This document shows positions 12,785 to 40,592 of a stretch of DNA of 64,000 nucleotides, piece by piece. Every line of letters starts with the position of its first letter. Positions within the stretch are counted from its first letter, which is position 1. A model generated the notes under the pieces. It made no database searches and was not told the origin of the DNA. It was given only the letters and a program-made list of their open reading frames with translations. Source of the stretch: Anaerohalosphaeraceae bacterium (GTDB lineage: Bacteria > Planctomycetota > Phycisphaerae > Sedimentisphaerales > Anaerohalosphaeraceae); contig JBNRMN010000020.1 in assembly GCA_050309605.1 (NCBI GenBank), positions 90,394 to 154,393 on the forward strand, given 5' to 3'. The position numbers and the translations under genes are program-made.

Positions 12785-14008
12785 TTAACCGCGTTTCGGC
12801 TTGTTTTCATCAAGGATTTCAATGTCTTCGGGACTTTTGATCCGATAGCGAATACCCCGCCAGACGATGGTTCGTCCGACGGCGGACGAAAGTATAACCA
12901 CCAGCAGGACAATCCCCCATATCCAGAATCCCAGCCAGTCGGCCCACCGCGCCGCGCGCAAGGCCTGTTTGTCTTTCGACAGCAGTCGCGCTGCCAGTTC
13001 CTGTCGAATAATCGCCCGAAAGATCTGGCTGCTCAAAAAGACCACAAATGCAAGGGCATATTCTGCCCGATACGGCGCGCTGACCGCCTGCCCCCAGATG
13101 GTCAGCGCCAGTGTGCCCCACAAGCCGACCACCGACAGCAGCGCCCCGGCCAGTCCGAACAGCCACAATCGCGGCGCATAGACCCGCGTAATGATAAACT
13201 GCCGCCGTACAAATTCCCACAACCGGCCCCATCTCATGGATTGATATGAGGCAATCATACACGCCGGGGCAAACCGCGTTCGCAGCCCGTCCCGGCGAAT
13301 CGCGCGGCTCAGCGACAGATCGTCGCTCAGCGCCCGACGCCAGATGTGCTCGATGCCGAGGCGTTCAAAATCGCTGCGGCGAACCGCCATTGAACCGCCC
13401 CAGGCTAAATTAAACCGGGTATTGCCCAGCAACTGACACACTTTCGCATTCATCGCCGACAGGGCCAGCGTGGCCGGATGTCTGTCCTTGGGGACAAACC
13501 AGCGATATCCGCTGGCCAGACCGATATGTTTTTTACGCAGCGGAGCGACCACCTGACAGAGCCAGTCCGGACCGGCGCAGGCATCCGAATCGGCAAACAC
13601 CAGCACCTCGACATCCGGCGACATCTGATGAACCGCAAACAACAAATTATGCAGTTTTTGGCTGCAGCCCGCCGTCCGACCGGCCACCAGAATCCGCACA
13701 TCCGAGGCCTCGGAACGACTGCGATGGCGCGCCTTGAGCCTCAGCAGCACCTCGTAGGCGGCATCGTCGCGACTTTCAACGACAAACCACAGCCGATATC
13801 CTGCGTAGGCTTGCTCGTAAAACGACTGGATGTTCGCCTCGAACGCTTCATCCAGCCCTTTACACGGCACAATTAAGACGCAGTGCGGCCGAAAGGTGCG
13901 CTCCCGCCGATATTTTTTCATCGCATAATGAAAATTGCTGTACACCTGAACGGTAAACGCAATTTCCACTACGATCAAAATCCCGATAATGAGTTCAAGC
14001 CAACCCAT
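12785..14008 (-). CDS. membrane glycosyltransferase, GT2/GT21 (ceramide glucosyltransferase/HpnI-like)
   Basis: IVPCKG, QKLHNL, FADSD, WGGSMA, SDD, RRQ. N- and C-terminal TM helices. Confidence 0.85.
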   Translation of the reverse strand: MGWLELIIGILIVVEIAFTVQVYSNFHYAMKKYRRERTFRPHCVLIVPCKGLDEAFEANIQSFYEQAYAGYRLWFVVESRDDAAYEVLLRLKARHRSRSEASDVRILVAGRTAGCSQKLHNLLFAVHQMSPDVEVLVFADSDACAGPDWLCQVVAPLRKKHIGLASGYRWFVPKDRHPATLALSAMNAKVCQLLGNTRFNLAWGGSMAVRRSDFERLGIEHIWRRALSDDLSLSRAIRRDGLRTRFAPACMIASYQSMRWGRLWEFVRRQFIITRVYAPRLWLFGLAGALLSVVGLWGTLALTIWGQAVSAPYRAEYALAFVVFLSSQIFRAIIRQELAARLLSKDKQALRAARWADWLGFWIWGIVLLVVILSSAVGRTIVWRGIRYRIKSPEDIEILDENKPKRG

Positions 14009-15048: not shown

Positions 15049-15064
15049 TGGCACAATGTTTGCA
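15049..15064 (+). promoter_or_regulatory. sigma-54 (-24/-12) promoter of the TPR/flagellar-gene operon
   Basis: TGGCAC-AATGT-TTGCA, with exact GG-N10-GC spacing, 65 bp before ATG 15129. Confidence 0.8.
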
Positions 15065-15128
15065 CACCTGATTTGTCGAACTAATAGTGCGCGATGAGAA
15101 TACCGGCAAAACGACCTGACAGGTTAGA

Positions 15129-17606
15129 ATGAGCAGCAATAAAAACGACAAATCGAAAAACCGGAATGAGGTTCCGAATCTCTCGGAGCTTTTCAGCGAC
15201 GATGTCAAACTGGATACGTCCGCCGGTGACCTCTTCAGCGGCCCCGTGTCCGGACTCAATGACGACAAGGCTTATCTGATGCAAGGCAACGCCGGGCCTC
15301 GTCAGGCCGACAGACGTTTCGCGGCCGCATCTTCCAGCTTCACACAAATGATACTGATCCTTAATATCGTTGTCCTGACCGGCATTCTGGTTTATCTGGT
15401 ACGCCGTCCGTTCGGCGTGATTTCAGCCGCTGGTGAGGCACCGACGAAATCAGCGGAGTCGGCCCGCCCTGCTCTGTCCGCGGCGGCATCTGAGGCAAAT
15501 GATGCAACCGACCCGGCGGCGCTGGTCAAAACGATGGAGTTGGGACGGCATACCACCGACGTGCTGGACGGCGCTGTCTCGCTGCAAACCGCCGAGAGAT
15601 TGTATGCGTCCAAAGAATACCTCAAGGCCGCCTATGTCTATGAGCGGCTGCGAAGCCATCTGACGCTGCGGACCGACCGGGACGAGGCGCTGGCCGATTG
15701 GTTGACGCTTCAAATGGCGCTGTGCCTGCAAAAAACCCAGGAACAGGAGTTAATGGCCGAACTGTTTACCCGCGCCCTGAACAGTCGTTCACCCGTGGTT
15801 CGGGCGCTGGCCAATTACAATCTGGCCTTTATCCAAAACCATAACCGCAATTTTCTCGAAGCCCGGCGCCACGCTTATCAGGCGATGGCGCTGTTGAAGA
15901 CGATTGAAACGTATATGCCGACAACGCTGGAGGCGGACTGTTATTTTCTGGCGGCTGAGTCGCTGACCCGCTATCTGCTGCGAATCGGCAACCAACGCGA
16001 CGACCTGCCGGGCAACACCTGGTCGGACGCACAGCCGATTTATTCGCTTCCGATTACCGACCAGGAACAGTTGGGGTATCTGCTGACCGAAGGCATGGAT
16101 CAACTGAGCAAATCAGCGATTGCGCCGCTCGTGGCATACGATCCGCAGCGTTCCATCGGCGCCCAGTGGACGGCGTATGCCCTGGACGCACCGCTGGATC
16201 AGCTTTTATGGCAATACGCCTCGGAAGCCAAAGTCACCCTGAATTTAAACAATCTGTCGTCCTCGGTCCGACAACACAAGACGATGGTGTATTTGCCGCT
16301 GGTGGATCGCAACTATCTGGCCGAAGTGGCGGTCGGCGCCGCCGGATTGGTCTGGCGGTTTGACGGGCAAACCGGACAAGTGTATGATATTTCGACATTT
16401 GAGCATTCCGATGCACTCCAATCCGTGCTTGTTCGTGAAGCGGCCGCGTCATGGCAGCGCTTCCTGCTGCGGCATCGCGACGACCCGCGCAAGCCCAATG
16501 CACATTATTGCCTGGGTCAGCTTCACACCATGGCCGACCAGGCGGCCACGGCGCTGGGCGAATATAAACTGGTGGCAACGCAGTATCCCACCCATTCGCT
16601 GGCGCCTTATGCACTGCTCGGCTCCAGCAGAATCAAAACAACCCTTCGCGATTTCAAGGGCGCCCAGACCGATCTGAACGAGTTATTGATTCGTTATCCC
16701 AATTCACGAATCACCGATGAGGCGCTGCTGTCGCTGGCCGAGGCGACGATGGAAAACGGCAATTACGCTGAAGCCGCCGAGCTGTTTGGCCGCGTGTATC
16801 ATTTGATTATCAATCGCCGCGCCCGCCTGCAATCCGTATTCGGTTTGGGCAAATGCGCCTACGAACAGGGACATTTTGCTGAAGCGGCCAAGTGGCTGAC
16901 CGAAACCCTGTCGCTGTTTACCGACAACAGCGACAGACGGCTGGCGGCAGCGTGTTTGATGCTCGGACGGGCATTGATCCAAACCGAACAGTACACCGAG
17001 GCGGCCAAGGTACTGCACAATGCGCTGGGCGCCAAACTGGGCAATCGGGAATATGTCCGGATCGCCCTGAATCTGGCCGAGGCGGAGATGAAACAGCAGC
17101 ACTATTTGGGGGCACTGGAGATTTTTGAACGCATTCCCGAATCGCGGCTGACTCAGGAAGATTCGGTTGACGTGATGATTGCCAAAGCGCGGCTGTATCG
17201 ACAGATTGACATACCGACGCCGGCAATTGCTCTATTGCGCCGAAAAATTGAATTCATCGCCGAGTCGCGGCTGCGCGCCCTGCTGTCGCTGGAGCTGGCC
17301 GAGTGTTACCTGCAAAACGGTGAACTGACGCCGGCTCGGCGCGAGCTGAATGAGGCAATGCCGCATTTGCCGACCGGCCGCGAAACCCGCCGAGCAATGT
17401 ATTTGCTGGCCCAAATCGCCTACCGCAACAACAATCACAAACAGGCCGAGGCGATCTGTCTGGATGTAATGAAACAAGGTGTTGAAGACGAATCGCTGCG
17501 TCGTGAAGTGCTTGGTCTTCTCGGAACACTCTATACCGAACAGCAAGCCTACGACCGCGCGGCGATGGCATACGCCGGTTTGCTGGAATCCCTGGACGTG
17601 CAATGA
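15129..17606 (+). CDS. single-pass membrane protein with large TPR region
   Basis: One TM (MILILNIVVLTGILVYLV). Repeated TPR/YbgF-like helices (NAHYCLGQ..YP..LAPYALL; YPNSRITDEALL). Confidence 0.8.
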   Translation: MSSNKNDKSKNRNEVPNLSELFSDDVKLDTSAGDLFSGPVSGLNDDKAYLMQGNAGPRQADRRFAAASSSFTQMILILNIVVLTGILVYLVRRPFGVISAAGEAPTKSAESARPALSAAASEANDATDPAALVKTMELGRHTTDVLDGAVSLQTAERLYASKEYLKAAYVYERLRSHLTLRTDRDEALADWLTLQMALCLQKTQEQELMAELFTRALNSRSPVVRALANYNLAFIQNHNRNFLEARRHAYQAMALLKTIETYMPTTLEADCYFLAAESLTRYLLRIGNQRDDLPGNTWSDAQPIYSLPITDQEQLGYLLTEGMDQLSKSAIAPLVAYDPQRSIGAQWTAYALDAPLDQLLWQYASEAKVTLNLNNLSSSVRQHKTMVYLPLVDRNYLAEVAVGAAGLVWRFDGQTGQVYDISTFEHSDALQSVLVREAAASWQRFLLRHRDDPRKPNAHYCLGQLHTMADQAATALGEYKLVATQYPTHSLAPYALLGSSRIKTTLRDFKGAQTDLNELLIRYPNSRITDEALLSLAEATMENGNYAEAAELFGRVYHLIINRRARLQSVFGLGKCAYEQGHFAEAAKWLTETLSLFTDNSDRRLAAACLMLGRALIQTEQYTEAAKVLHNALGAKLGNREYVRIALNLAEAEMKQQHYLGALEIFERIPESRLTQEDSVDVMIAKARLYRQIDIPTPAIALLRRKIEFIAESRLRALLSLELAECYLQNGELTPARRELNEAMPHLPTGRETRRAMYLLAQIAYRNNNHKQAEAICLDVMKQGVEDESLRREVLGLLGTLYTEQQAYDRAAMAYAGLLESLDVQ

Positions 17607-18337
17607 AACAAAAACGACATTATTATCATATCGTGTTTTGGTGCATTGCCGCGGCGGCGGCAACGACGAGGGCGTCCGATCCCAATACCGTCCTTGATCA
17701 GTCCCGCACGCTGCGTCGGCAGTTTATGGCGCACACGCTGTCGGCGGTATCGGAAAAGACGCCCGACGAACAAGAAGCAACACTTGCCGAGTTGATCGAA
17801 CAGGTGTTGTCGCTGCAAGCGCCGCGAACAAAGGATCCCAATCAACCGGCACCGTCATCTTATGCCGCAAATGACGATCCGAATTCAAAGCCGCTCGAAC
17901 ACAAAACAAGCGCCCCGTCGTCCGCAAAACAAACCACCGAGCAGCAAACCGATGCCGCAACAAAACGGCGGAACCATCTGATTGAATGGCTGAGCACAAT
18001 CGAGGCCCCTGAATCGATCCCGTACCCGAAGGAATTGGCGGATGTGCTGTATCGGGCGGGCCGGCTTGAATCGGCGGCGCGCTATTATGACATCGCGCTG
18101 TTGCAAACCTCCAAAGAACAGGCCCCGATGTATTCGTGGCTGCTGTTTCAATCCGCCAATTGTGTACGTCACACCGACACAGCCAAAGCCAAAGCCCGAT
18201 ACGAGGAGTTGATTCAATTGTATCCCAACTCCGTCTGGGCCGCCGCGGCGCAGGGGCGGCTGCGGATGCTGAACTGGCTGGAAACAAACCAGACGCAGGT
18301 ACAACAACACACGACAATACGGAGCGAGAATGAATAG
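17603..18337 (+). CDS. secreted TPR protein
   Basis: Signal-peptide-like N-terminus, low-complexity linker, C-terminal TPRs (YEELIQLYPNSVWA). ATGA overlap with the upstream gene. Confidence 0.75.
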   Translation: MKQKRHYYHIVFWCIAAAAATTRASDPNTVLDQSRTLRRQFMAHTLSAVSEKTPDEQEATLAELIEQVLSLQAPRTKDPNQPAPSSYAANDDPNSKPLEHKTSAPSSAKQTTEQQTDAATKRRNHLIEWLSTIEAPESIPYPKELADVLYRAGRLESAARYYDIALLQTSKEQAPMYSWLLFQSANCVRHTDTAKAKARYEELIQLYPNSVWAAAAQGRLRMLNWLETNQTQVQQHTTIRSENE

Positions 18338-19736
18338 CGAAACCTATTATCATGTGCTGATGCTTGAACGGGATTCGCGTCAGTTGCGCGAGGCGCTGGC
18401 GGTGCTGGCTCGGCGCAATCTGCGCGGTACGGTCGCCACAACCGCACGGGCGGCGCGAACGTTTCTGGAACAATATCGGTGGCATTTGGTGTTCATCGGA
18501 GATGATTTTCCAGTCGAGTCGGGCGGGCCGGGAAGCGATCTGCTGACGCTGCTGCGGACGGAGCATCCTGAAGTGCCGATTGTAATGATTTGCGAAAACC
18601 AGGCCTCTCAAGCAGCGGTCGCCGGACTGCGCGCCGGCTGCGTCGATGTCCTTGAAAAGCCGCTCCAGGCTGAGGCCGTGGAGGCCCTTCTGGATCGCCG
18701 GCTTCCCAATCACAAGGCCGGACGCATTGCAACGGTCATCGGTGACGACGGTCGGGCATACCCGATTATCGGACAAAGTAAACCTTTACGGCAGGCGGTT
18801 CGCATGGCCGAGGCAGTCGCGGCGACCTCGGCGCCGGTCTTGATCACCGGCCCCAGCGGCACGGGCAAGGAACTGCTGGCCGGACTGATTCACGACCGCA
18901 GCAAGCGATCCGGCGGCCCCCTCGTGCGGGTCAATTGTGCGGCGCTGAGCGAATCGCTGCTCGAAAGCGAGCTGTTCGGCCATGAAAAAGGCGCCTTTAC
19001 CGGTGCGCTGGTGTGCCACAAAGGCCGGCTGGAACGCGCTCACGGCGGCACGCTCTTTCTCGATGAGATTACCGAAACGCCGCCGCCGTTTCAGGCCAAG
19101 CTGCTTCGCGCTCTGGAACAGATGCAGTTTGAGCGGGTCGGCGGCAGCGAGAGCATCCGCGTCAATGTCCGTTTGATCAGCACGACCAATCAGGATATCA
19201 TCCGGCAGGTTCACACCGGGGCGTTCCGCGCCGATCTGTATTATCGTCTCTGCGGCGTTCATATCGCCATGCCCGCCCTTGCGGACCGTAAAGACGATCT
19301 GCCGGAGCTGATTTGGTGGTTTGTCAATGAGTTTGCCGGCGAGGCGGGACGTGCGATTACCGAAATCGACCGGCGCACGCTGGATGTGTTCAACGCCTAT
19401 TCATGGCCGGGCAATATCCGGCAGCTTCGCAATGTGGTGCGAAGCGCGATGATCCTTGGCAAAGGATCGAAACTGTCAATTACCGAGACGCCGTGGCTGT
19501 TGCAGGAATTGCGGCGCAACCTCGGCGTTCAGCCGTTGGATGACGAACCGCCGTTTGCCCTGGCGGGCCATTCGCTTGAAGAATTGGAACGGCGGGCCAT
19601 CCTGGATACGCTGCGGCGGGAAGACGGCAATCGAACACGAGCGGCGAGAATTCTCGGCATCAGCGACCGAACATTGCGTCAGAAAGTAAAAAAATACAAC
19701 GATGTCGCAGAACCGGCCGTCACGGCCGTGGATTAG
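18330..19736 (+). CDS. sigma-54 enhancer-binding protein with atypical receiver domain (FleQ/FlrA/FlbD-like)
   Basis: GPSGTGKE, ESELFGHEKGAFTGA, FLDEI, WPGNIRQL and a C-terminal Fis HTH. Receiver-like N-terminus. Confidence 0.92.
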   Translation: MNSETYYHVLMLERDSRQLREALAVLARRNLRGTVATTARAARTFLEQYRWHLVFIGDDFPVESGGPGSDLLTLLRTEHPEVPIVMICENQASQAAVAGLRAGCVDVLEKPLQAEAVEALLDRRLPNHKAGRIATVIGDDGRAYPIIGQSKPLRQAVRMAEAVAATSAPVLITGPSGTGKELLAGLIHDRSKRSGGPLVRVNCAALSESLLESELFGHEKGAFTGALVCHKGRLERAHGGTLFLDEITETPPPFQAKLLRALEQMQFERVGGSESIRVNVRLISTTNQDIIRQVHTGAFRADLYYRLCGVHIAMPALADRKDDLPELIWWFVNEFAGEAGRAITEIDRRTLDVFNAYSWPGNIRQLRNVVRSAMILGKGSKLSITETPWLLQELRRNLGVQPLDDEPPFALAGHSLEELERRAILDTLRREDGNRTRAARILGISDRTLRQKVKKYNDVAEPAVTAVD

Positions 19737-19810
19737 CGGTCTGAGAACAGACCGGATGGATGGTAGGAATCAAACACAAGACAGACTCGATAACCGTGTG
19801 AGAGCAAACA

Positions 19811-20392
19811 ATGGCCAAAGACAAAGATCAAAACGTGAAAAAAGAAGACAAAGAAAAAACCGGTTCACCCTCCGCAGGCGGACCAGGATTATTGTCATGG
19901 CTGATTTTGGGCGCTGTGGTTGCAGCCGGCGCTACCGGCGGCTTCGCCCTGTCCCAACTGCTGGGCGGTCAGGACAACGCGGCAATCCCCAAATCGAATG
20001 GTACGCCGGAAAACAACGTCAAGACGTTTGATGAGGTGCTGGCTCAACAGGCCGCCAACGGCGCATCGCCGTGGATTTACGACGCGATGGAACCGGTGCT
20101 GGCCAATCTGGATGAACCGGGCGTAACGCGCTATGTGCGCGTGTCGATTTCGCTGGAAATCAGCCCCGAGCTGGACCCGGAAAAAGGCACGGTCTTTCTG
20201 GAGCAGCGTGCGATGGTGCTGCGCGACTGGCTGACGACGTATTTTGCGGGATTAAGCCTTGAAGACGTTCGCGGGAGCCGGAACCTGAATCGCATCAAAC
20301 GCGATGTACAGGACCAGTTCAATCAATTGTTGTTTCCGGACGCCAAGCCGTTCATCCGTCAAATATTGTTTCGGGAGTTTGCGGTTCAATGA
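19811..20392 (+). CDS. fliL: flagellar basal-body-associated protein FliL
   Basis: N-terminal TM, then VLANLDEPGVTRYVRV...LRDWL...ILFREFAVQ. Confidence 0.85.
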   Translation: MAKDKDQNVKKEDKEKTGSPSAGGPGLLSWLILGAVVAAGATGGFALSQLLGGQDNAAIPKSNGTPENNVKTFDEVLAQQAANGASPWIYDAMEPVLANLDEPGVTRYVRVSISLEISPELDPEKGTVFLEQRAMVLRDWLTTYFAGLSLEDVRGSRNLNRIKRDVQDQFNQLLFPDAKPFIRQILFREFAVQ

Positions 20393-21363
20393 CTCAGACG
20401 CCTCAGGACAATCCGATGGCCGGTCGTCATCTGCTGGAGCTAATGCAGACGATGCGGTCGCTGGTCGAGCCGGAAACACACCGTCCGGACGCCGAAGCGG
20501 TGGATTGGTACATTCCTCACCGGCTCAACAGCGAAAGCAGGGAATCGCTGATGCTGTTCAGTGTCAAATTGGCCGGGTATTTGGAAAAAAGTCTGCACAC
20601 GCTGGCCGGGGCGACGTTCGAGGTGCGGGCCGAAGGCCTCTATGAGCGGTACGCCGACCAACTGTACGCCCACGTCATGCAGAAGCAGCCGAAAACCTAC
20701 TATATGCCCGTCTTGCAGCCGAACAAAGGGCCGGTGGGATTTATCAGTCTCCCGTTTGAGACAGCGACGCTGCTGGTCGGATTTATGCTGCGCGATCCGG
20801 AGTCGCAAATCGGCGACAACGGACAGATGACCACGCTGGCCGAATCGATTCTGCTGGATGCAACCTCGTCGCTGGCCGAGGTGCTGGCTGAAGGCTTTAA
20901 CGAATACGGACGGATCCCCATCCAGAAAAGCAATCAGATCATCTACAGCGACTGGCCTGTCCCGTTTCACAACCTGGATGATATGTGCGAATTTCGCTTT
21001 GAGGCCGTCAGCGGCCAGGCCAAGCTGACGGTATCGCTGACGGTCGTCGATGAGGTCATTGCCGAGATTGCTCAGATCAAAGGGCCGTTCAGTCGAGCGG
21101 TTGAAAAAAAAGGAAATCCCGACCACATCGTCAAACAAATGCACGAAGCGCCGATGCGGATAACCGCTCTGCTCAGTAGGGCACTGATGACGCTGAAAGA
21201 TATTTTGTCGCTGGAAGAAGGCGATGTGGTGGTTTTGGATCGCCAAATCACCGAGCCGGCGGATGTACTGATCAACGGACGGACAACCTTCAGTGCCTGG
21301 CCGGCCAAGGCGGCCGGCCGACGGGCGCTGCTGATCTCCGGTGAAAAAGTGTCCCGTTTGTAA
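20389..21363 (+). CDS. fliM: FliM-like switch protein, divergent
   Basis: DWYIPHRL (the YDFxxPxR equivalent) and a C-terminal SPOA domain (TLKDILSLEEGDVVVLD). Located between fliL and fliN. Confidence 0.7.
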   Translation: MTQTPQDNPMAGRHLLELMQTMRSLVEPETHRPDAEAVDWYIPHRLNSESRESLMLFSVKLAGYLEKSLHTLAGATFEVRAEGLYERYADQLYAHVMQKQPKTYYMPVLQPNKGPVGFISLPFETATLLVGFMLRDPESQIGDNGQMTTLAESILLDATSSLAEVLAEGFNEYGRIPIQKSNQIIYSDWPVPFHNLDDMCEFRFEAVSGQAKLTVSLTVVDEVIAEIAQIKGPFSRAVEKKGNPDHIVKQMHEAPMRITALLSRALMTLKDILSLEEGDVVVLDRQITEPADVLINGRTTFSAWPAKAAGRRALLISGEKVSRL

Positions 21364-21419
21364 AACACAGCGCCGTCGGCAATAAAACAAAACGCTGACA
21401 TTGAGAACAGGATATCACA

Positions 21420-21824
21420 ATGGCCAAAACAGAAACACCTGACGCCGAAAAAACTGAACAAACCGAAATGCAGGAAGCGCAGACCGAAGAGACCCCCGTC
21501 CAGACGGCCGCCTTTGAAGAAGTCGAAGACGCCGGCCCTTCCGAGCAGGAGAATTTATCGGTTTTGCTGGATATCCAGATGCCGATTACGGTCGTTCTGG
21601 GGACGACCGAGGTCCCGTTTCGCAGGCTCTTGCAGTTGGGACCCGGCTCGGTGCTCGAGCTGGATCAGGCGATCGGCCAGCCGGCGGAATTGTATGTGCA
21701 GGGCATTCGTCTGGCCACCGGCGACGTGGTGGTCGTGGATGATCACTACGGCCTGCGGATTCGGCACGTGATGGGCAGTCAGGTCAAACAGCTTGATCCG
21801 ACACAGGAAACGAAAAACGCATAA
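21420..21824 (+). CDS. fliN: flagellar switch protein FliN
   Basis: LLDIQMPITVVLG..LLQLGPGSVLELD..GDVVVVDDHYGLRI. Confidence 0.92.
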   Translation: MAKTETPDAEKTEQTEMQEAQTEETPVQTAAFEEVEDAGPSEQENLSVLLDIQMPITVVLGTTEVPFRRLLQLGPGSVLELDQAIGQPAELYVQGIRLATGDVVVVDDHYGLRIRHVMGSQVKQLDPTQETKNA

Positions 21825-21842
21825 TCTCTCTTGACAGGACGT

Positions 21843-23987
21843 ATGAGCGAATCGACGGGACAACATGCAAAACCTCACGCAGAAGGCGGCGCACTGCGAT
21901 TCGGCGGCAATACGAATTTTATCTTTGCGGCCGGCCTGGTGGCGATTCTGGCAACGCTGCTGATCCCGCTGCCGACGTTTCTGCTGGACATCGGACTGGC
22001 GTGCAGCATTTCGCTGGCGGTGGCGGTGCTGATTATCGTGCTCGGCTCCAATGAGCCGCTGGAACTGTCCACATTTCCCTCGCTGCTGCTGATTACGACG
22101 CTGTTTCGCCTGTCGCTGAACGTCGCTTCCACGCGGCTGATTCTGCTGCGCGGCGATGCAGGTACGATCATTGACACCTTCGGCCATTTCGTCGCCGGCG
22201 GCAATCTGATTGTCGGGCTGGTGATGTTTTTGATCCTGATGGTCATTCAGTTTGTAGTCATTACCAAAGGCGCCGGGCGCATCAGTGAAGTGGCCGCGCG
22301 ATTCGTGCTGGACGCCATGCCGGGCAAACAAATGGCCATTGACGCCGATCTGAACGCCGGCGCCATCACCGAAAAAGAAGCCAAAGCCCGACGCGACGCC
22401 ATTGTCAAAGAAAGCGAATTTTACGGTGCCATGGACGGCGCCAGCAAATTTATTTCCGGCGACGCCAAAGCGGGGCTGATCATCACCGCTGTCAACCTGA
22501 TCGGCGGCATTCTGCTGGGCTACACACACGGCATGCCCATCGCCGACGCCCTGCAGCGCTACGCCGTGCTGTCCATCGGCGACGGTCTGGTCAGCCAGAT
22601 TCCTTCGATTATCATCGCGGTCAGCAGCGGTTTTCTGGTCAGTAAAATCCGCTCCGAGCACACCGTCAGCGTCGATATGACCCGCCAGTTGCTTCGGCAC
22701 AATCAGCCGCTGCTGATTGCCGCCAGCGTGATCGGCGCCTTTACGCTGGTGCCGGGCTTTCCCAAGATTCCGTTCCTGCTGCTGGGCGGCGGCTGCGGAA
22801 CGCTGGCCTGGCTGGTACGAAAACAATCCGCCGCGCCGCAAACGAAGGCCGAAGACGAAACCGAGCGGGCCGATGTCAAGGATGAAAGTGCGGCCGTCGA
22901 GGAGCTGCTGCAGGCCGACATTCTGTCGATTCTGGTGGGCGTCCGGCTGATTAGTCTGGTCGATCCGCGAAAAAAAACCAGCATCTTTGATCGCATCGGA
23001 GCGCTGCGCAAAAAATTCGCCCAAAAATACGGCTTTATTATTCCGCTGGTCCGGCTGCGCGACAACATTAGTCTGGAACCGAACGCCTATGAGATTCGTT
23101 TGTACGATCATGTGATTGCCTCCGGCACGCTGGAGCCGGGGCGTTATCTGGCAATGGATCCGGGCACGGTGCAGCGTCCGGTCAAAGGAATCTCAACCAA
23201 GGAACCGGTGTACGGGCTGCCGGCGTTGTGGATCAATGAAGCCGACAAAGAAAAAGCCGAATTGGCCGGTTACACCGTCATCGATCCTGAGTCGGTCTTG
23301 ATGACCCATCTGTCCGAGACGCTGAGCCGACACGCCCACGAACTGCTGACGCGCGAAGACGTTCAGCAGTTGCTGGAACGGCTGCGTAAAGTCCAACCGT
23401 CGCTGGTCGGCGAAGTGGTGCCCGAAGTGGTCTCGGTGGGACTGCTACAGCGTGTGCTTCAGAACCTGCTGCGTGAGGAGATTTCCATTCGCGATCTGCC
23501 GTTGATCCTTGAGGCACTCGGCGAACACGGGGGACGCACCAAGAACGCCGTGCTGCTGACCGAACTGGCTCGCAAGGCCCTGGCTCGCACGATCACCGAA
23601 CAGCACAAGGCCAATGACGGAACCCTTTACGCCATTACGCTTGATCCGACCGTGGAACATACGCTGCTTGGGCAGGTCAATCAGAGCAATGACGCCATCG
23701 GCCTTTCGGTTGATCCGGAAACCGCATCCTGCCTCGGTCAGGCCGCCGCGCAGGCCTGGAAGGCGGTGATGGAAAAAGGCATTGACCATGCCATTGTCCT
23801 GTGCGATGCACGGCTGCGGGCGGGACTGCGAACCCTGCTGCAGCGGACGATTCCGCGACTGCCCATCATCGCTTATGATGAAATTGTTCCGGCAAGTCCC
23901 ATCGAACCGGTCGAAATGCTCACGCTGCCCGACGGCGTCGGCAACGGCGGCGACGGCGTTGACGCCGGACAATTGATGACGGTATAA
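21843..23987 (+). CDS. flhA: flagellar export gate protein FlhA
   Basis: FPSLLLITTLFRLSLNVASTRLIL, RISEVAARFVLDAMPGKQMAIDADL, FYGAMDGASKF, SIGDGLVSQIP. Confidence 0.96.
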   Translation: MSESTGQHAKPHAEGGALRFGGNTNFIFAAGLVAILATLLIPLPTFLLDIGLACSISLAVAVLIIVLGSNEPLELSTFPSLLLITTLFRLSLNVASTRLILLRGDAGTIIDTFGHFVAGGNLIVGLVMFLILMVIQFVVITKGAGRISEVAARFVLDAMPGKQMAIDADLNAGAITEKEAKARRDAIVKESEFYGAMDGASKFISGDAKAGLIITAVNLIGGILLGYTHGMPIADALQRYAVLSIGDGLVSQIPSIIIAVSSGFLVSKIRSEHTVSVDMTRQLLRHNQPLLIAASVIGAFTLVPGFPKIPFLLLGGGCGTLAWLVRKQSAAPQTKAEDETERADVKDESAAVEELLQADILSILVGVRLISLVDPRKKTSIFDRIGALRKKFAQKYGFIIPLVRLRDNISLEPNAYEIRLYDHVIASGTLEPGRYLAMDPGTVQRPVKGISTKEPVYGLPALWINEADKEKAELAGYTVIDPESVLMTHLSETLSRHAHELLTREDVQQLLERLRKVQPSLVGEVVPEVVSVGLLQRVLQNLLREEISIRDLPLILEALGEHGGRTKNAVLLTELARKALARTITEQHKANDGTLYAITLDPTVEHTLLGQVNQSNDAIGLSVDPETASCLGQAAAQAWKAVMEKGIDHAIVLCDARLRAGLRTLLQRTIPRLPIIAYDEIVPASPIEPVEMLTLPDGVGNGGDGVDAGQLMTV

Positions 23988-24014
23988 ATGACAACCATTT
24001 AACGTGTTAAATAG

Positions 24015-24254
24015 ATGGATAAAACAATACGCAACATAGCGATTCGGTTGGCGGTGCTGCTGTTTTTTGTGATGGCACTGATTGGATGGCTCAGCGGGCT
24101 TGAGCCGATGGTTTGTACCCAGCGGGCATTGATCGGGGCGGCCGCATTGTATCTGACGGTATGTATCGCGGGCAATCTGATTGTGCGTATATTGGTGGAC
24201 GCGATGGCGCAGGATCGGGCGCGTCGTCGTCATCGGAAAAATCAACACACGTAA
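24015..24254 (+). CDS. small two-TM hypothetical protein
   Basis: Two hydrophobic segments; fills the flhA-fliA gap on the operon strand. Confidence 0.7.
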   Translation: MDKTIRNIAIRLAVLLFFVMALIGWLSGLEPMVCTQRALIGAAALYLTVCIAGNLIVRILVDAMAQDRARRRHRKNQHT

Positions 24255-24264
24255 ACGGTAACTT

Positions 24265-25149
24265 ATGACGATACCTCAGGACACCCAGAACATTCAGACG
24301 GAATTGGGCGGCGGCGAAAGCGTCCGGGCCGCGGCGTGTGAATTCAACGCCCCGCCGCCACACGCCGGACAAGCACTCCGCGCCTACGATGACCAGATGC
24401 GGCGCCGGCGGGAGGACGAGCTGATCATTCAATATCTGCCGCTGGTGCATCGCATCGTTCGGCAGGTCGCCTCATACCTGCAGCCGCCGCTGTCGCGCGA
24501 CGATCTGATTTCCGCCGGGACGATCGGCCTTGTCAAGGCGGCACGGGACTACGATGCGGCCAAAGACGCCGAGTTCAAAACCTACGCTTATATCCGGATC
24601 CGCGGGGCGGTCATTGACGAACTGCGCGGCTGGTCGTTTACACCGACGACCAGTAAAAAACTGTTCGATCAGGTGCAGACCGTCGCCGAGCGGTATTTGC
24701 AGGAAAACGGAACCATCGCCTCCGATGACTATATCGCCGAGGCGCTGAATCTGCCGCTTGAAAAAGTCTATCAGGTTTATGAATCCGCCCGGGCGCGGCA
24801 TTTTCTGTCCATCAGCGGCGCCGATGATGAATCCCCGGCGCTGGGCCACTGCCTGACCGCTCCGAACAGTCACGCCCCCGGCGACCGCCTCGAACACGAG
24901 GAAATGAAAGCAACGCTGGCCCGGGCGATTGAGGAACTGCCGGAAAAACAGCGACACATCATTCTGTTGTACTATCACCGTGAACTGACGATGAAACAGG
25001 TATCCGAAGCGATGGAGCTGACCGAATCACGCATCAGCCAGCTTCACGCCGCCGCGTTATTCAAGCTGTCAACGCGAATGAAGCAATGGCAGCACGATGA
25101 ACCGGTTAAAACAGAACAAAAACCCCACGACATGATAAGGAGTCACTGA
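24265..25149 (+). CDS. fliA: FliA/WhiG family sigma-28 factor
   Basis: YLPLVHRIV, DDLISAGTIGL, FKTYAYIRIRGAVIDELR, LTESRISQLH. Confidence 0.93.
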   Translation: MTIPQDTQNIQTELGGGESVRAAACEFNAPPPHAGQALRAYDDQMRRRREDELIIQYLPLVHRIVRQVASYLQPPLSRDDLISAGTIGLVKAARDYDAAKDAEFKTYAYIRIRGAVIDELRGWSFTPTTSKKLFDQVQTVAERYLQENGTIASDDYIAEALNLPLEKVYQVYESARARHFLSISGADDESPALGHCLTAPNSHAPGDRLEHEEMKATLARAIEELPEKQRHIILLYYHRELTMKQVSEAMELTESRISQLHAAALFKLSTRMKQWQHDEPVKTEQKPHDMIRSH

Positions 25150-25376
25150 TGGCCGCACACGATGAGTCGCTGGATCGCGTCCAGTCGCCGACGGTGGTCG
25201 CCCAGCCGGTCTCCATCGGCCCGCGTCAGGCCGAGAACAAAAAAGAGGACGCCCGTAAAGGCAAAAAACACCGGCGCCGTCCGCGTCCGAGCATTGAAGA
25301 AACGCTCCGACAGGAACAGACGCAGCGCGAATGCGACGGCGACGAGGAGCAGACTCATATTGATTATCACGCTTAA
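25149..25376 (+). CDS. small charged hypothetical protein ending IDYHA
   Basis: AAGGAG RBS; start overlaps the fliA stop. Confidence 0.65.
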   Translation: MAAHDESLDRVQSPTVVAQPVSIGPRQAENKKEDARKGKKHRRRPRPSIEETLRQEQTQRECDGDEEQTHIDYHA

Positions 25377-25399
25377 CAGTGACGAGGAGACCAGCTCAG

Positions 25400-25657
25400 A
25401 TGATAGGACAAACCGTCAAGGTGATGAAACACAACGGCGTAAAGGTCGGTGGAAGTGCTCGCATCGCGCCCCTCACGGGCGCCGCCCCTGTCAGGACGAA
25501 AGCAGCACCGCGGGCATCTTCCCCGACCGCCGGCGCCCCCCAAGAGGCACGCATCATTGAAAGCAATGCCGACTATGCCATTATCGAACTGACCTGCGCA
25601 TGCGGCACAAAAAGTTATATTCAGTGCAATTACGCCGATTCTCAGGCGACACAATAA
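25400..25657 (+). CDS. small hypothetical protein with C-x-C-G...C motif
   Basis: GAGGAG RBS before ATG 25400; C-terminal IIELTCACGTKSYIQCNY. Confidence 0.65.
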   Translation: MIGQTVKVMKHNGVKVGGSARIAPLTGAAPVRTKAAPRASSPTAGAPQEARIIESNADYAIIELTCACGTKSYIQCNYADSQATQ

Positions 25658-25686
25658 ATTCGCTGATACATACGGAGATCAAGACC

Positions 25687-26199
25687 ATGAATAAGATACG
25701 CATAGGGATAACGGCGCTGCTGCTGTTGACGGGCTGCCGCGTCATTGAAGAGCGGGTAATCTACGACACCTCCGATCCGCCGCCGGCCGCGGCGCCCTCG
25801 CCGGCGGCACGGCCCAACACCGAAATCATTGAACGACGGTTTGTCGATCCCGACACACGGAATGACGCCGTGCAAAGTGCCGTCACCTGGGCCAAAAAAT
25901 ATGAAAACGTCGTGGAACAGAACACCGAGCTGCGCGAAAAAAACAACGCGCTGTTTGTCGAAAATACCGAATTGAACCGACAGCTTGAAACGGCCAAAGC
26001 CGACCTCGAACGAACCCGCAACGAACTGAACGAGGCCAATGAATTTCTTCAGGAAATGCACGCCGAGCTGAACAAGTGGAAGGCCGATGTGCTGGGCTTT
26101 CGCGATGAAATGCGTCAGGCCCAGAAAGCCCAGCTCGAAGCGCTGAGCCGGATTCTGCTGATTCTCGGCGCCGAACCAATGCGAACCTCCGAACAATAA
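25687..26199 (+). CDS. coiled-coil lipoprotein
   Basis: Lipobox LLTGC, Pro-rich linker and long heptad region; GGAG RBS. Confidence 0.75.
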   Translation: MNKIRIGITALLLLTGCRVIEERVIYDTSDPPPAAAPSPAARPNTEIIERRFVDPDTRNDAVQSAVTWAKKYENVVEQNTELREKNNALFVENTELNRQLETAKADLERTRNELNEANEFLQEMHAELNKWKADVLGFRDEMRQAQKAQLEALSRILLILGAEPMRTSEQ

Positions 26200-26217
26200 C
26201 AGGCACAAAACGGGACG

Positions 26218-26907
26218 ATGCCAATGAAACGGTGGCTATTCATCGCGGCTTTCGCAGCGGTCTGTTGTGCGGGGTGTCGGGAGATTATTTATCCCGTCCC
26301 GTCGCGAACGGATCATTTCTATGTCAATCCGCAGGCCGATTTTACGACGGTCGGACGGGTCGCCCTGCTCGAACTGGACAACCAGACGCCGCGGACCGAC
26401 GTGTCGGACACATTTACACAGGCCCTGGCTGATGCCTTGGGCAAACGCCACCTGTTCAGCGTGCAAAAGGTCATGCGATCGGATCCCGTCTGGCAAACCC
26501 ATCGGCTGGGCAATATGCACTCGCATACCCTCGACGATCTGGCCGCGGCCCGACAGGCACTGAACGTGGACGCGGTCCTGTTCGGGGAGATTCGCCGCTA
26601 TATGTCGTTTCCGCATTTGCAGATCGCATTAAACCTGAGATTGGTGGATACCCGCACGGGGCGGCTGCTCTGGGCATTCGAGGATGTCTGGGACAGCAGC
26701 GACAAGGCCGTCGAACGGCGGATGCAGACCTACTTCCGAGAACAAATGCGGACCGGTTATGAACCGATGGACTGGCAGATTCTGGTTACCAGCCCACGGG
26801 CGTTCGAGGGCTTTGTTGCATATGAAGTCTCTGAAACTCTACCGGAATTACCCAAAAATATCGTTCCGCGGACCGTTGAATACAGACGCCGCTATTTGGC
26901 GCCGTAA
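26218..26907 (+). CDS. lipoprotein of CsgG/FlgO/TolB-N-like fold
   Basis: Lipobox CAGC; RVALLEL, LNVDAVLFGEI, LRLVDTRTGRLLW. Confidence 0.7.
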   Translation: MPMKRWLFIAAFAAVCCAGCREIIYPVPSRTDHFYVNPQADFTTVGRVALLELDNQTPRTDVSDTFTQALADALGKRHLFSVQKVMRSDPVWQTHRLGNMHSHTLDDLAAARQALNVDAVLFGEIRRYMSFPHLQIALNLRLVDTRTGRLLWAFEDVWDSSDKAVERRMQTYFREQMRTGYEPMDWQILVTSPRAFEGFVAYEVSETLPELPKNIVPRTVEYRRRYLAP

Positions 26908-26924
26908 AAAAAATTGAATTGGCC

Positions 26925-26951
26925 TTAAGTTTTTCAGGCTGCCCTCGATAA
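26925..26951 (+). promoter_or_regulatory. sigma-28 promoter of the flgM-like gene
   Basis: TTAAGTTT-N11-CTCGATAA versus extended consensus TAAAGTTT-N11-GCCGATAA. Confidence 0.65.
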
Positions 26952-26992
26952 TAATACTGACAGATAGAATATGTGAAGATAATGGCTGTAAA

Positions 26993-27262
26993 ATGCAGAT
27001 AAACGCTTATAACAATTTGTTTTCATCGTTGCCGACGGGCGCTCACCCTGCTGCACGAACCGATAAAAACGACCCTGCTGACGAATCCGGTCAGATAGTG
27101 GAGTTAAGCAAACGTTTCGACCGACTCATCGAGCAGGCCAAAATCGAATCACAAGATCGCAGCGCAGTCGAACAGGCTCGCCGGGCGCTGGCTGACGGCA
27201 CACTGGAGTCGCCGGAAGCGTTTTTGTCGGCGGCTGAACATCTATTGCGTTTGGGGATATAA
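26993..27262 (+). CDS. FlgM-like anti-sigma-28 factor
   Basis: 89 aa; VELSKRF...DRSAVEQARRALADGTLESPEAFLSAAEHLL resembles the FlgM C-terminal helices. Sigma-28-type promoter upstream. Confidence 0.6.
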   Translation: MQINAYNNLFSSLPTGAHPAARTDKNDPADESGQIVELSKRFDRLIEQAKIESQDRSAVEQARRALADGTLESPEAFLSAAEHLLRLGI

Positions 27263-27301
27263 AGCCACGGACGGCTGATTCATCAATAAGGGATTATTGA
27301 T

Positions 27302-27351
27302 ACAAAAAAGGTTTTGGATGACTTAAGGCAGTCCAAAACCTTTTTGTTTTT
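27302..27351. terminator. bidirectional intrinsic terminator
   Basis: aaaaaggttttgga...tccaaaaccttttt inverted repeat with A/T tails. Confidence 0.8.
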
Positions 27352-27365
27352 GCCCGATCTGACAC

Positions 27366-27566
27366 TCACACGGCCGTATTCAGTACCCTTCCGGACATCC
27401 CCGCTTGGGCGGTGCGAAGGCCATAGGCACGATCAATCAAACCTTCCATCGCCCTGAACACCGGCGGCTGAACGCCGCACGGCGCCGGCGTATGTGAGCT
27501 GTCATTATCCGGCGCCGACGACGGCGCCGAATCAACGATACGGCATACAACGTACTTTTTCATCAC
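27366..27566 (-). CDS. small hypothetical protein ending GRVLNTAV
   Basis: Converges on the terminator. GGGGG RBS-like run and TTGAAG-N18-TATAAT upstream. Confidence 0.45.
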   Translation of the reverse strand: MMKKYVVCRIVDSAPSSAPDNDSSHTPAPCGVQPPVFRAMEGLIDRAYGLRTAQAGMSGRVLNTAV

Positions 27567-29496: not shown

Positions 29497-30963
29497 ATGA
29501 AAAAACCGACCCTGTCACCGTCTTTTCGCGATTTTTTTGCGCTGGTCGCCGATGCGACCTTCACCAATCCGTTCAGTGCCCATCGAGCCGACATCGATCG
29601 GCGGATGGCCGGGATGCTCAGCGAGACCGACTGGCGCAAGGTCGTCCCGCGGGCCGTCGATCAGATTCGCCGACGTCTGGTGCAGCTCGACAAGGACGGT
29701 CTGTGCCGGATTCAGGACTTCGAACCGGCCGACCGGGAATTGATGGTATATGTGTACTTATTCGACACTTTTCATCGCCTTGCACGGGATTTTGACGACG
29801 TCATCATCCGCCAGCAGCATCGAGGCGATGAGTCAATGACCATTCCCTTTGCCGATGCAGCCCTTGAGTCGCTCAGCCGACGGGGCTTTAGCCCGCCGGA
29901 AGCGGCACGCTATTTTGCCCTGTTTTATCAGATTCGCCGGGCGTTTTTCTTTATCGATACCGGGCTGGTCGGTCCCAGCGACTCTATGCGCAAACTGCGA
30001 ATGGACCTCTGGAATAATATCTTTACACAGGATATCCGCCGATACGAGCGGTATCTCTGGGACAGGATGGAGGATTTTTCGACCCTGCTGGAAGGGCCGA
30101 CCGGCTCAGGCAAAGGCGCCGCGGCCGCGGCCATCGGCAAAAGCGGATTCATCCCCTACGACCCCCAGCGCAAGCGCTTTGCCATCAGCTTTACCCGGAC
30201 GTTTGTTGCAATCAATCTATCCCAATACCCCGAAGGCCTGATCGAATCGGAACTGTTCGGCCACACCAAAGGTGCCTTTACCGGCGCGGTCAACGCGCAC
30301 GAAGGATTGCTCAGCCTGTGCGGGCCGCACGGCTCCATCTTTCTGGACGAAATCGGCGAAATTGATATTCCCATTCAGGTCAAACTACTGAAGGTACTTG
30401 AAGAACGCACCTTCAGCCCGGTCGGCAGCCACGAAAAAATGCGTTTCGGCGGGCGGGTCATCGCCGCGACCAACCGCCCCATCCACACCTTGCGCAGCGA
30501 AGGAAAATTTCGCGATGACTTTTATTATCGTCTGTGCTCGGACTGTATTCGCGTGCCGAGTCTGGCTGAGCGGATTCAGCAAAATCCCGACGAACTGGCC
30601 CATCTGGCCGGCCATTTCGTACAGACCATTCTCGGCAGAGACATCCCCGAATTGACAGCCCGTGTGCTGGAGGTCATCGACAAACGGCTGGGGCACTGCT
30701 ACCACTGGCCCGGCAATGTGCGTGAGCTGGCCCAGTGTATTCGTCGCGTACTGCTCAAAGACGACTACGAAGGCGACCGACTTGAACAGACCAATCACGT
30801 CGAGGCCCTGTGCCAGAAAATGAAAATCGGCTCGGCGACCGCCGACGAAGTCATCACCGACTACCTCAAACGCCTCTACGCTATTCACGGAACCTATGAA
30901 GCAACCGCCCGCGCAGCCGGGCTTGATCGACGCACCGTCAAAAAGAAAATCAGCGAATCCTGA
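29497..30963 (+). CDS. sigma-54-interacting activator with unrecognised N-terminal domain
   Basis: GPTGSGKG, ESELFGHTKGAFTGA, FLDEIGE, WPGNVREL and a C-terminal HTH. Confidence 0.9.
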   Translation: MKKPTLSPSFRDFFALVADATFTNPFSAHRADIDRRMAGMLSETDWRKVVPRAVDQIRRRLVQLDKDGLCRIQDFEPADRELMVYVYLFDTFHRLARDFDDVIIRQQHRGDESMTIPFADAALESLSRRGFSPPEAARYFALFYQIRRAFFFIDTGLVGPSDSMRKLRMDLWNNIFTQDIRRYERYLWDRMEDFSTLLEGPTGSGKGAAAAAIGKSGFIPYDPQRKRFAISFTRTFVAINLSQYPEGLIESELFGHTKGAFTGAVNAHEGLLSLCGPHGSIFLDEIGEIDIPIQVKLLKVLEERTFSPVGSHEKMRFGGRVIAATNRPIHTLRSEGKFRDDFYYRLCSDCIRVPSLAERIQQNPDELAHLAGHFVQTILGRDIPELTARVLEVIDKRLGHCYHWPGNVRELAQCIRRVLLKDDYEGDRLEQTNHVEALCQKMKIGSATADEVITDYLKRLYAIHGTYEATARAAGLDRRTVKKKISES

Positions 30964-39583: not shown

Positions 39584-39679
39584 CATCAAAAAAATCGGGG
39601 GGATGAAATTGATTCAGTTTTTTGCTATAATACGAGTTTGGGGGATGGGCAAAAAGGATATAACTTTTCGGGAATTCAA

Positions 39680-40588
39680 ATGGATGTCCAAGGCGTCATT
39701 TTTGATATAAAAAAATATGCCATCCACGACGGGCCGGGGATCCGGTGCACGGTCTTTCTGAAAGGCTGTCCGCTTCGCTGTTCGTGGTGCCATAACCCCG
39801 AAAGCTGGGCGCCGCAGCCTGAGCCGATGTATCGGCCCGTGCGATGCGTCCGATGCGGACGATGCGTCGAAGTCTGCCCGGAATCGGCGATTACGCTGAA
39901 TGAGGAGGGCCTCATCACCGATTCTGCACGATGCAGCCGGTGCGGAACGTGCCTGACCGTTTGCCCGGCCAATGCACGGCAGATCGTTGGACGGACGGTT
40001 TGTGCGGCAGAGATACTGGAAGAGATTGAAAAAGACCTTGTTTTCTACGATACATCCGCCGGCGGCGTAACGTTTTCCGGCGGCGAGCCGCTGACGCAGC
40101 CGGATTTTCTCGAGACCTTGCTGATCGGCTGCCGACATCTGGATATTCATACCGCGGTGGATACCTGCTGCTATGCCGAGCCGGATGTCGTACGCCGAAT
40201 AGCAGAGTATTCCGACTTGTTTTTGTGTGATATTAAACATTTGGATCCGGACAAACACAAGCAATTTACCGGCGTGGAGAACACCCTGATACTGGACAAT
40301 ATCGCTCTGCTGGCGTCGCTGGGCAAAACAATGATAATCCGCATTCCGGTGGTGCCGGATTTTAACGATCAGCCATCGGACATTGAGCAGATCGGGCGGT
40401 ATATTAAAAGTCTGAAAAATGTTCAGCAAATTGATCTTTTGCCGTATAATGGCGGAGGCAGCGCAAAGGCCCGCCGACTGGGCCGAGGGGACGATGTTCC
40501 GCAACGACCCGCGGCGGATCGACATGCGATAAACGACTATGCACACCGTTTACGACGGTTGGGTTTTAATGTCAAAGTGGGTGGATAA
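39680..40588 (+). CDS. glycyl-radical enzyme activating protein (radical SAM with ferredoxin insert)
   Basis: HDGPGIR, GCPLRCSWCHNPE, two CxxCxxCxxxCP motifs, GGVTFSGGEP. Confidence 0.95.
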   Translation: MDVQGVIFDIKKYAIHDGPGIRCTVFLKGCPLRCSWCHNPESWAPQPEPMYRPVRCVRCGRCVEVCPESAITLNEEGLITDSARCSRCGTCLTVCPANARQIVGRTVCAAEILEEIEKDLVFYDTSAGGVTFSGGEPLTQPDFLETLLIGCRHLDIHTAVDTCCYAEPDVVRRIAEYSDLFLCDIKHLDPDKHKQFTGVENTLILDNIALLASLGKTMIIRIPVVPDFNDQPSDIEQIGRYIKSLKNVQQIDLLPYNGGGSAKARRLGRGDDVPQRPAADRHAINDYAHRLRRLGFNVKVGG

Positions 40589-40592
40589 TGCG

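Follow-up and report, generated by a model that had tools for sequence, protein, structure and literature searches.

A 64-kb stretch of a contig from an Anaerohalosphaeraceae bacterium (JBNRMN010000020.1, positions 90,394 to 154,393; all 64,000 nucleotides are called the window below) contains a tightly packed block of flagellar genes on its + strand, between window positions 15049 and 27352, with a sigma-54 promoter as its first element and a terminator as its last. This block is best read as a conventional flagellar operon that forms one piece of a dispersed regulon, with the other flagellar genes elsewhere in the genome, and we put the probability of this reading at roughly 0.85. The reading is based on collinear orthology with the canonical operon of a Phycisphaerae metagenome-assembled genome (MAG), here called L001, on scores against flagellar protein families, and on the predicted fold of FliM. 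It is further favored because the proteins show no acceleration relative to those of L001 and FlhA is strongly conserved, and because there are precedents for dispersal, FliP proteins in Sedimentisphaerales MAGs, and a set of flagellar genes in the MAG E22bin.0448. An earlier, sequence-only reading of the same DNA had offered two alternatives, a dispersed flagellar regulon or a minimal module kept for a non-motility role. The dispersed regulon is favored here; the minimal module is left without support by the collinearity with L001, the flagellar family scores and the lack of extra divergence. The elements of the block, all on the + strand, are as follows.

15049..15064, +: sigma-54 (-24/-12) promoter TGGCACAATGTTTGCA, 64 nt 5' of the first ATG, a perfect match to the consensus
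15129..17606, +: 825-aa membrane-anchored tetratricopeptide repeat (TPR) protein with one transmembrane (TM) segment and TPR repeats
17603..18337, +: 244-aa secreted TPR protein with a signal peptide, its start overlapping the preceding stop by 4 bp
18330..19736, +: sigma-54 enhancer-binding response regulator (REC, AAA+ with GAFTGA, and HTH_8)
19811..20392, +: fliL (PF03748, 6e-14, 52.8 bits)
20389..21363, +: fliM of a divergent Planctomycetota type, 324 aa (FliMN_C by sequence, FliM by predicted fold)
21420..21824, +: fliN (FliMN_C, 6e-22, 77.8 bits)
21843..23987, +: flhA (FHIPEP, 822 bits)
24015..24254, +: 79-aa protein with two hydrophobic segments, between flhA and fliA
24265..25149, +: fliA, encoding sigma-28 (TIGR02479, 198.3 bits)
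25149..25376, +: 75-aa basic/acidic small open reading frame (ORF), with a counterpart in L001 by eye
25379..25657, +: 92-aa small ORF with a C-terminal Cys motif
25687..26199, +: coiled-coil lipoprotein; the ORF opens at 25600, and the lipoprotein signal MNKIRIGITALLLLTGC, with its lipobox Cys, begins at 25687
26218..26907, +: 229-aa lipoprotein with a lipobox Cys and a modeled fold like those of PelC, GNA1162, LpoB, TolB-N and FlgT
26925..26951, +: sigma-28-like promoter TTAAGTTT-N11-CTCGATAA, in an 85-bp spacer and 41 nt 5' of the FlgM-like ATG
26993..27262, +: FlgM-like 89-aa protein, its position conserved in L001
27305..27352, +: intrinsic terminator at the end of the unit, a hairpin with a U-run behind it

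The genes, their order and their strand agree with the sequence-only reading, according to the ORF calls and the Pfam and NCBIfam matches. The comparison with other genomes used 80 flhA loci from genome contigs, drawn from at least 600 stretches and chosen by similarity to the window FlhA; FlhA relatives of 64-90% identity fall outside this set. The closest of the loci listed is L001, with an FlhA 57% identical to that of the window and the gene order fliI-fliJ-x-motA-motB-motB-fliL-fliM-fliN-fliO-fliP-fliQ-fliR-flhB-flhA-90aa-fliA-two small ORFs-coiled-coil lipoprotein-228aa-100aa. Every gene of the window operon except the TPR-TPR-activator group has a collinear counterpart there: fliL, fliM, fliN, flhA, the small membrane ORF, fliA, the small ORFs, both lipoproteins and the FlgM-like ORF follow one another in the same order, with identities of 28% for FliL, 24% for FliM (full length), 47% for FliN and 49% for FliA. 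The two loci differ in that the window lacks fliO, fliP, fliQ, fliR and flhB between fliN and flhA, and in that motA-motB-motB precedes fliL in L001 whereas two TPR genes and a sigma-54 activator gene do so in the window. The complete operon of L001 also contains the 2-TM ORF, the small ORFs and both lipoproteins, which can therefore be regarded as normal companions of flhA and fliA. The accessory genes had given the block an exotic look, but with the exception of the TPR pair they occur in the ordinary operon of L001 and, in the case of the PelC-like lipoprotein, also in that of L004, a Pirellulaceae locus.

The operon is compact and undamaged. All 14 ORFs are intact by ORF calls and Pfam. 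The fliN stop at 21824 and the flhA ATG at 21843 leave the 18-bp gap described earlier; the spacer has a purine-rich stretch 5' of the ATG, and there is neither a repeat nor a break in composition at the junction. The choice of this ATG follows the 714-aa database form P0001; the ORF list extends the frame to a TTG at 21831. When FliI, FliJ, MotA, MotB, FliO, FliP, FliQ, FliR and FlhB of L001 were used as tblastn queries across the 64 kb, the best match had E = 0.011, and so these nine genes and any debris of them are absent from the window. Apart from the C-ring genes fliM and fliN, no genes for the MS ring or rotor, rod, hook, filament or stator were found in the 64 kb. The sequence-only reading was therefore right that the ORFs are intact, that no pseudogene debris is present, and that fliOPQR, flhB, fliI and the mot, rod, hook and flagellin genes lie outside the window. 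At the 3' end, the terminator hairpin has a folding energy of -19.4 kcal/mol (z = -4.82), and none of 200 shuffled sequences folds as well. Beyond the hairpin is a convergent 66-aa ORF on the - strand (27366-27566, the second figure being the end coordinate of the region as first described), with no family match; it probably does not belong to the operon and may not even be a gene.

The FlhA protein scores clearly as a component of a flagellum. It passes the flagellar equivalog model TIGR01398 with 797 bits, above the 772.1 required, and fails the SctV model TIGR01399 (581.9 bits against 692.25), with other SctV models far below their cutoffs; it also fails the chlamydial FlhA-like model NF004571 (272.5 bits against 670). 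It aligns over its full length to a solved flagellar FlhA with 521.6 bits, and the two proteins are nearly identical in a stretch of the cytoplasmic loop (ITKGAGRI...MPGKQMAIDADLNAG). Judged by these scores and alignments, the window FlhA is of the flagellar type and not of the injectisome type. The protein is also well conserved among its relatives. The best 120 FlhA clusters listed, the window's own included, are all 64-100% identical to it; 14 of them (P0002-P0015) are 82-90% identical and 105 more are 64-79% identical. Where named, they are proteins of Phycisphaerae, Anaerohalosphaeraceae, Sedimentisphaerales or Planctomycetota MAGs, which places the organism within Sedimentisphaerales or close to this order.

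The C-ring and FliL proteins also fit their families, with FliL well above the PF03748 cutoff of 24.6 bits and FliN well above the FliMN_C cutoff of 23.8 bits. By sequence, the FliM-like protein shows only the C-terminal FliMN_C (SpoA) domain, as does the FliM of L001. Its structural model, built on 102 homologues with a predicted local distance difference test (pLDDT) score of 87.2, finds its best PDB matches in the FliM chains of the Salmonella C-ring solved by cryo-electron microscopy (E = 4.7e-17 over 296 columns), and it also matches crystals of the FliM middle domain with a TMt of about 0.8. An exhaustive homologue search found 549 representatives at E <= 1e-3, and 29 of the 102 family members scanned match PF02154, so that the family merges gradually into Pfam FliM. 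According to this model, the protein is a full-length FliM with a CheC-like middle domain and a C-terminal SpoA domain. The alternative that it is a SctQ protein was ruled out by the fold and by an NCBIfam SctQ match at E = 0.0042 only. Loss of the FliG-contact motif, which we take to be GGXG in FliM, was likewise considered as a sign of repurposing, since the window protein has RDPE where L001 has GGGG; most family representatives have LR-D or LG-D at this site, making the change a family trait.

The window proteins have not diverged more than those of the canonical operon. Pfam scores for the window and L001 are 822 and 818 bits for FHIPEP, 77.8 and 78.1 for FliN, and 52.8 and 55.2 for FliL. 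When compared with the other loci, the window protein outscores that of L001 at 79 of 79 loci for FlhA, a count biased because the loci were picked by similarity to the window FlhA; the same is true at 21 of 21 shared loci for FliN and 3 of 3 for FliM, neither of which was used in the picking. FliA of the window outscores FliA of L001 at only 1 of 54 loci. These comparisons suggest that FlhA, FliN and FliM of the window are no more divergent than their L001 counterparts.

Separation of flhA from the export-gate genes is not peculiar to the window. At least 4 kb 5' of flhA was available in 65 of the 80 loci, and in these gate genes were detected by tblastn with the L001 queries at E <= 1e-4, a search that may miss a divergent FliQ. 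The gene for FlhB lies directly 5' of flhA in 48 of the 65, a gate gene is present but elsewhere in the flanks in 7, and no fliP, fliQ, fliR or flhB was detected in the fetched flanks of the remaining 10. The statement that fliOPQR-flhB usually lie between fliN and flhA is thus correct as a tendency but not as a universal rule. Four of the 10 gate-free loci are alphaproteobacterial, with the order fliN-activator-flhA (L012, L016, L041 and L051). These fliN-flbD-flhA loci resemble the window in that flhA is apart from fliPQR and flhB and a sigma-54 activator is linked to fliN and flhA; they differ in the placement of the activator, which is between fliN and flhA there and 5' of fliL here. The Pirellulaceae locus L004 has flgF/G/A/H/I beside fliL-fliM-fliN-fliO-fliP-flhA-fliA, with no fliQ, fliR or flhB within 10 kb. 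Here too flhA is separated from some of the gate genes, although fliO-fliP remain beside it. Genuine flagellar systems with split gate genes are thus known, as shown by L004 and the 10 of 65 loci. Dispersed flagellar regulons are found in Caulobacter, Helicobacter and Campylobacter.

Flagellar genes that are missing from the window occur in relatives. FliP proteins are recorded from Sedimentisphaerales MAGs, as found with the L001 FliP query and with a two-sequence Sedimentisphaerales FliP profile. Within the family, the Anaerohalosphaeraceae MAG E22bin.0448, which is 94.9% complete, has four flagellin genes on two contigs according to Table S4 of PMC12590107. The rows of the same source place MotA and FliG on a third contig and MotB, FlgM and FliN on one contig each, which makes six contigs, and a methyl-accepting chemotaxis protein on another. 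To the extent of these E22bin.0448 rows, Anaerohalosphaeraceae has filament, rotor and stator genes, and they are scattered. More broadly, core flagellar proteins are encoded in 70% of the Planctomycetota genomes covered by PMC11929135, and flagellated Phycisphaerae are described from culture in PMC10945688 and PMC8882080. In the literature on flagella or motility of Anaerohalosphaera and Sedimentisphaerales, and on fliP of Phycisphaerae, no account of the present gene arrangement was found.

The regulatory elements of the operon are those of a multi-operon regulon. The sequence TGGCAC-N5-TTGCW, which we take to be the -24/-12 consensus for sigma-54, has a match without mismatches at 15049 and nowhere else in the 64 kb. 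With up to two mismatches allowed, the window has 23 matches against 36.7 expected; because such matches are no commoner than expected, only the perfect site is informative. The activator encoded in the operon has the REC, sigma-54 AAA+ and HTH architecture (Sigma54_activat, 2.4e-65). It falls under every equivalog cutoff, with 321.3 bits against 750 for FlbD and 241.4 against 750 for FlgR, and its domain make-up suggests an activator of the FlbD/FleR/FlgR kind. FliA passes its equivalog model, TIGR02479, for which the cutoff is 189.6 bits. The presumed sigma-28 consensus, with up to three mismatches allowed, occurs three times in the window where 0.38 occurrences are expected; of the three, the site at 26925 alone is intergenic.

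The 89-aa protein encoded behind this site had been called FlgM-like from the letters alone, and the label can be kept only tentatively. Its position is shared with the 100-aa ORF of L001, to which it is 26% identical (E = 4e-4). It has no Pfam match even at E <= 10, and its single PDB match to FlgM has E = 1; the nearest Atlas cluster has a score of 0.93, and 23% of the members of that cluster carry the FlgM Pfam domain. Taken together, the perfect sigma-54 promoter, the presence of fliA and the sigma-28-like promoter before the FlgM-like gene argue for the logic of a multi-operon regulon, and the block is most likely a sigma-54-dependent, middle-class flagellar operon. A second sigma-54 activator of 488 aa, with an AAA+ domain and 190 N-terminal residues without an assigned domain, is encoded at 29497-30963, 2 kb 3' of the operon and after an ATP-binding cassette (ABC) transporter pair. 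It may regulate this cascade from a higher level.

The accessory genes are of several kinds. The 825-aa protein has its TM segment near residues 72-92 and periplasmic TPR/YbgF-like repeats, and a PDB sequence search with it returned designed TPR proteins only, which is uninformative. TPR scaffold proteins are known from Campylobacter (PflA and PflB), and collar proteins from spirochaetes; the window TPR proteins are like PflA/PflB-type scaffolds in that they are encoded beside motor genes. The 79-aa ORF has no Pfam match and is 33% identical to the 90-aa ORF at the same position in L001 (12187-12459, E = 8e-8). In many bacteria flhF-flhG lie between flhA and fliA, which is where the 79-aa ORF sits; neither the window nor L001 has an flhF or flhG homologue there. 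The 75-aa ORF has no BLAST match in L001, where the ORF at 13221-13478 is similar by eye in charge make-up and C-terminus. The 92-aa ORF, without a family in Pfam or NCBIfam, ends in the motif I-E-(L/V)-T-C-x-C-G...I-Q-C, which is the same in the L001 ORF at 13505-13756, also just after fliA. This small Cys-motif protein (about 85-92 aa) may be a metal-binding regulator.

Both lipoproteins have clear counterparts in L001. The coiled-coil lipoprotein is 33% identical to its counterpart (E = 5e-20), and its family matches are limited to weak LPAM_1 and coiled-coil matches. The 229-aa lipoprotein is 35% identical to the 228-aa protein of L001 (14329-15015, E = 6e-47), has a homologue 3' of fliA in L004 (14805-15359), and belongs to a Planctomycetota-wide family without a name, as judged from Atlas clusters. 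No membership in PelC/FlgT-type families was found for it at the sequence level, and a PDB sequence search was uninformative. Its structural model (pLDDT 74.2, from a three-sequence alignment) matches PelC (E = 8.4e-8), a chain of the Vibrio LPHT ring (1.9e-5) and FlgT (2.9e-5), and also GNA1162, LpoB and TolB-N. The modeled fold therefore resembles that of PelC from the PelB-PelC exopolysaccharide exporter, where ring formation is a feature of PelC. It likewise resembles the H/T-ring proteins of Vibrio (FlgT and its partners). On the strength of the model, the 229-aa lipoprotein is a candidate for a Planctomycetota-specific basal-body ring protein. More generally, the 2-TM protein, the small Cys-motif protein and the coiled-coil lipoprotein, which occur in L001, and the PelC/FlgT-like lipoprotein, which occurs in L001 and L004, are reasonable candidates for motor components.

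The rest of the window encodes enzymes of the rhamnosidase, sulfatase, sialidase, fucosidase, GH2 and GH20 types, together with a glycyl-radical enzyme and N-terminal-methylation proteins that have laminin-G domains. To judge from this gene make-up, the organism is an anaerobic polysaccharide degrader of the Planctomycetes-Verrucomicrobia-Chlamydiae (PVC) group. The glycyl-radical enzyme and a radical S-adenosylmethionine (SAM) activase are encoded at 39638-42956 among glycan-degradation genes, consistent with an obligate anaerobe. Several large laminin-G-domain proteins are encoded at 43012-48812 and 63196-63993, and beside them (43012-43851) is a 279-aa ORF with a prepilin-like N-terminal methylation signal. 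Large proteins with laminin-G domains and N-terminal methylation signals are typical of PVC bacteria.

A scheme for the function of the operon can be proposed on this basis. The promoter at 15049 would be opened by an activated enhancer-binding protein of the sigma-54 system, perhaps the product of the operon's own activator gene, to give one long transcript running from the TPR genes through the two lipoprotein genes, as suggested by the 4-bp overlaps, the short gaps and the lack of a convincing internal terminator. FlhA, together with FliPQR and FlhB encoded elsewhere, would form the export gate, and FliM and FliN would join FliG on the MS ring. The FlgM-like protein would hold FliA until the hook-basal body is complete, and FliA would then drive late genes elsewhere as well as the FlgM-like gene, from the site at 26925. 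In the most speculative part of the scheme, the two lipoproteins and both TPR proteins might be lineage-specific motor accessories of the periplasm or outer membrane, similar to stator scaffolds and basal-body rings; this role is suggested by their position in the operon, by the presence of the lipoproteins in L001 (and of the 229-aa lipoprotein also in L004), and by the moderate-confidence model of the 229-aa lipoprotein. Relative to L001, fliO-fliP-fliQ-fliR-flhB would have moved out from between fliN and flhA.

A number of observations weigh against the dispersed regulon. The reading supposes that this organism would have fliPQR, flhB, fliEFGHIJ and the rod, hook, filament and stator genes beyond the window. 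The FliP matches that carry a name include none from Anaerohalosphaeraceae, among the best 120 of about 8000 in each search. An accession comparison of 10 FliP with 20 FlhA clusters gave no pair close enough to come from one assembly, which says nothing either way when the best 120 of about 8000 matches per search are compared. Table S4 of PMC12590107 has no fliPQR or flhB KEGG orthology (KO) entries at all. FliN, with 77.7 bits, is just under the 84.05 cutoff of TIGR02480. The N-terminus of FliM (20389-20460) departs, in the window protein and its closest homologue P0398, from the L-T/S-x-x-K-L-x-x-L pattern common to most family members; the N-terminal peptide of canonical FliM binds phosphorylated CheY (CheY-P), and so switching control may differ in this sub-clade. 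The sigma-28-like site at 26925 has three mismatches to the consensus, and no equivalent of it was found in L001. Finally, neither TPR protein was found to have a homologue among the 80 loci, so that their flagellar link is operon position alone.

The alternative raised by the sequence-only reading is that the gate core, rod, hook and filament were lost, and that FlhA, FliM/FliN, FliL, the sigma-54/sigma-28/FlgM circuit, the TPR proteins and the lipoproteins were kept for envelope sensing, atypical secretion or regulation. The absence of the other core genes from the 64 kb and the clean lack of fliOPQR-flhB where L001 has them would fit such a module, as would the fact that FliP is not tied to assemblies with close FlhA relatives. 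Nonetheless, we consider it improbable. We know of no function of FlhA without FliPQR and FlhB, and keeping FliA with its FlgM-like partner would be pointless unless the export checkpoint worked and late genes lay elsewhere. The divergence of FlhA, FliN and FliM is no greater than in the canonical L001 operon, and the accessory genes that might mark a new function, namely both lipoprotein genes, the small ORFs and that for the 2-TM protein, belong to the L001 operon as well (the PelC-like lipoprotein also to that of L004). The one partial parallel is the cryptic FlhA that Chlamydiaceae, also of the PVC lineage, keep without flagella and without flagellar structural genes nearby, as far as described in PMC5604735. 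That source also describes the chlamydial protein as markedly divergent from FlhA of flagellated bacteria, whereas the window FlhA passes the flagellar cutoff and scores far better with the flagellar than with the chlamydial model (797 against 272.5 bits). In addition, the rows of PMC12590107 list flagellin, FliG and MotAB for a MAG from the same family. A broader version, which we regard as very unlikely, is that the whole anaerobic Phycisphaerae clade (FlhA 64-90% identical, more than 100 clusters) dropped FliOPQR/FlhB and the axial structure, and that purifying selection maintains FlhA, a FliM/FliN platform, FliL, a PelC-like ring lipoprotein, TPR proteins and the sigma-54/sigma-28/FlgM circuit, which together would form a non-rotary device of the envelope.

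The missing genes could also have been lost recently. In such early-stage decay, motility would have ended with a deletion of fliOPQR-flhB, leaving the other genes intact but no longer under selection, and the clean lack of five genes relative to L001 at an 18-bp junction free of debris could indeed be the trace of a deletion. This too is hard to credit, since all 14 ORFs are intact, the window proteins fit their family profiles as well as those of L001 do, and the FlhA relatives (14 further clusters at 82-90% identity and 105 more at 64-79%) point to purifying selection acting over a long time in this clade. Still more doubtful is an assembly artefact, in which the fliN-flhA junction would be a mis-join or collapse and the real genome would have fliOPQR-flhB at that point. 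The relatives are almost all MAGs, and so the source of the window may be one too; however, the tidy 18-bp spacer, rich in purines ahead of the ATG and with neither a repeat nor a shift in composition, speaks against a mis-join, and the exact FlhA sequence is recorded on two contigs, the longest of 154 kb.

The consequences depend on which of these readings is right. Were the remaining core genes absent from the genome, the operon would be a remarkable repurposed flagellar sub-assembly, and a clade-wide non-rotary device would provide the first free-living case of a flagellar export-gate subunit working without the gate core. If the dispersed regulon is correct, as we favor, the operon is an ordinary flagellar one whose gene order is particular to its lineage and which includes a few uncharacterised accessory genes. 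Its value is then mainly descriptive, as a record of the arrangement and regulation of flagellar genes in uncultured, anaerobic, polysaccharide-degrading planctomycetes, with an activator encoded in the operon, a sigma-54 promoter, fliA and a sigma-28-like site.

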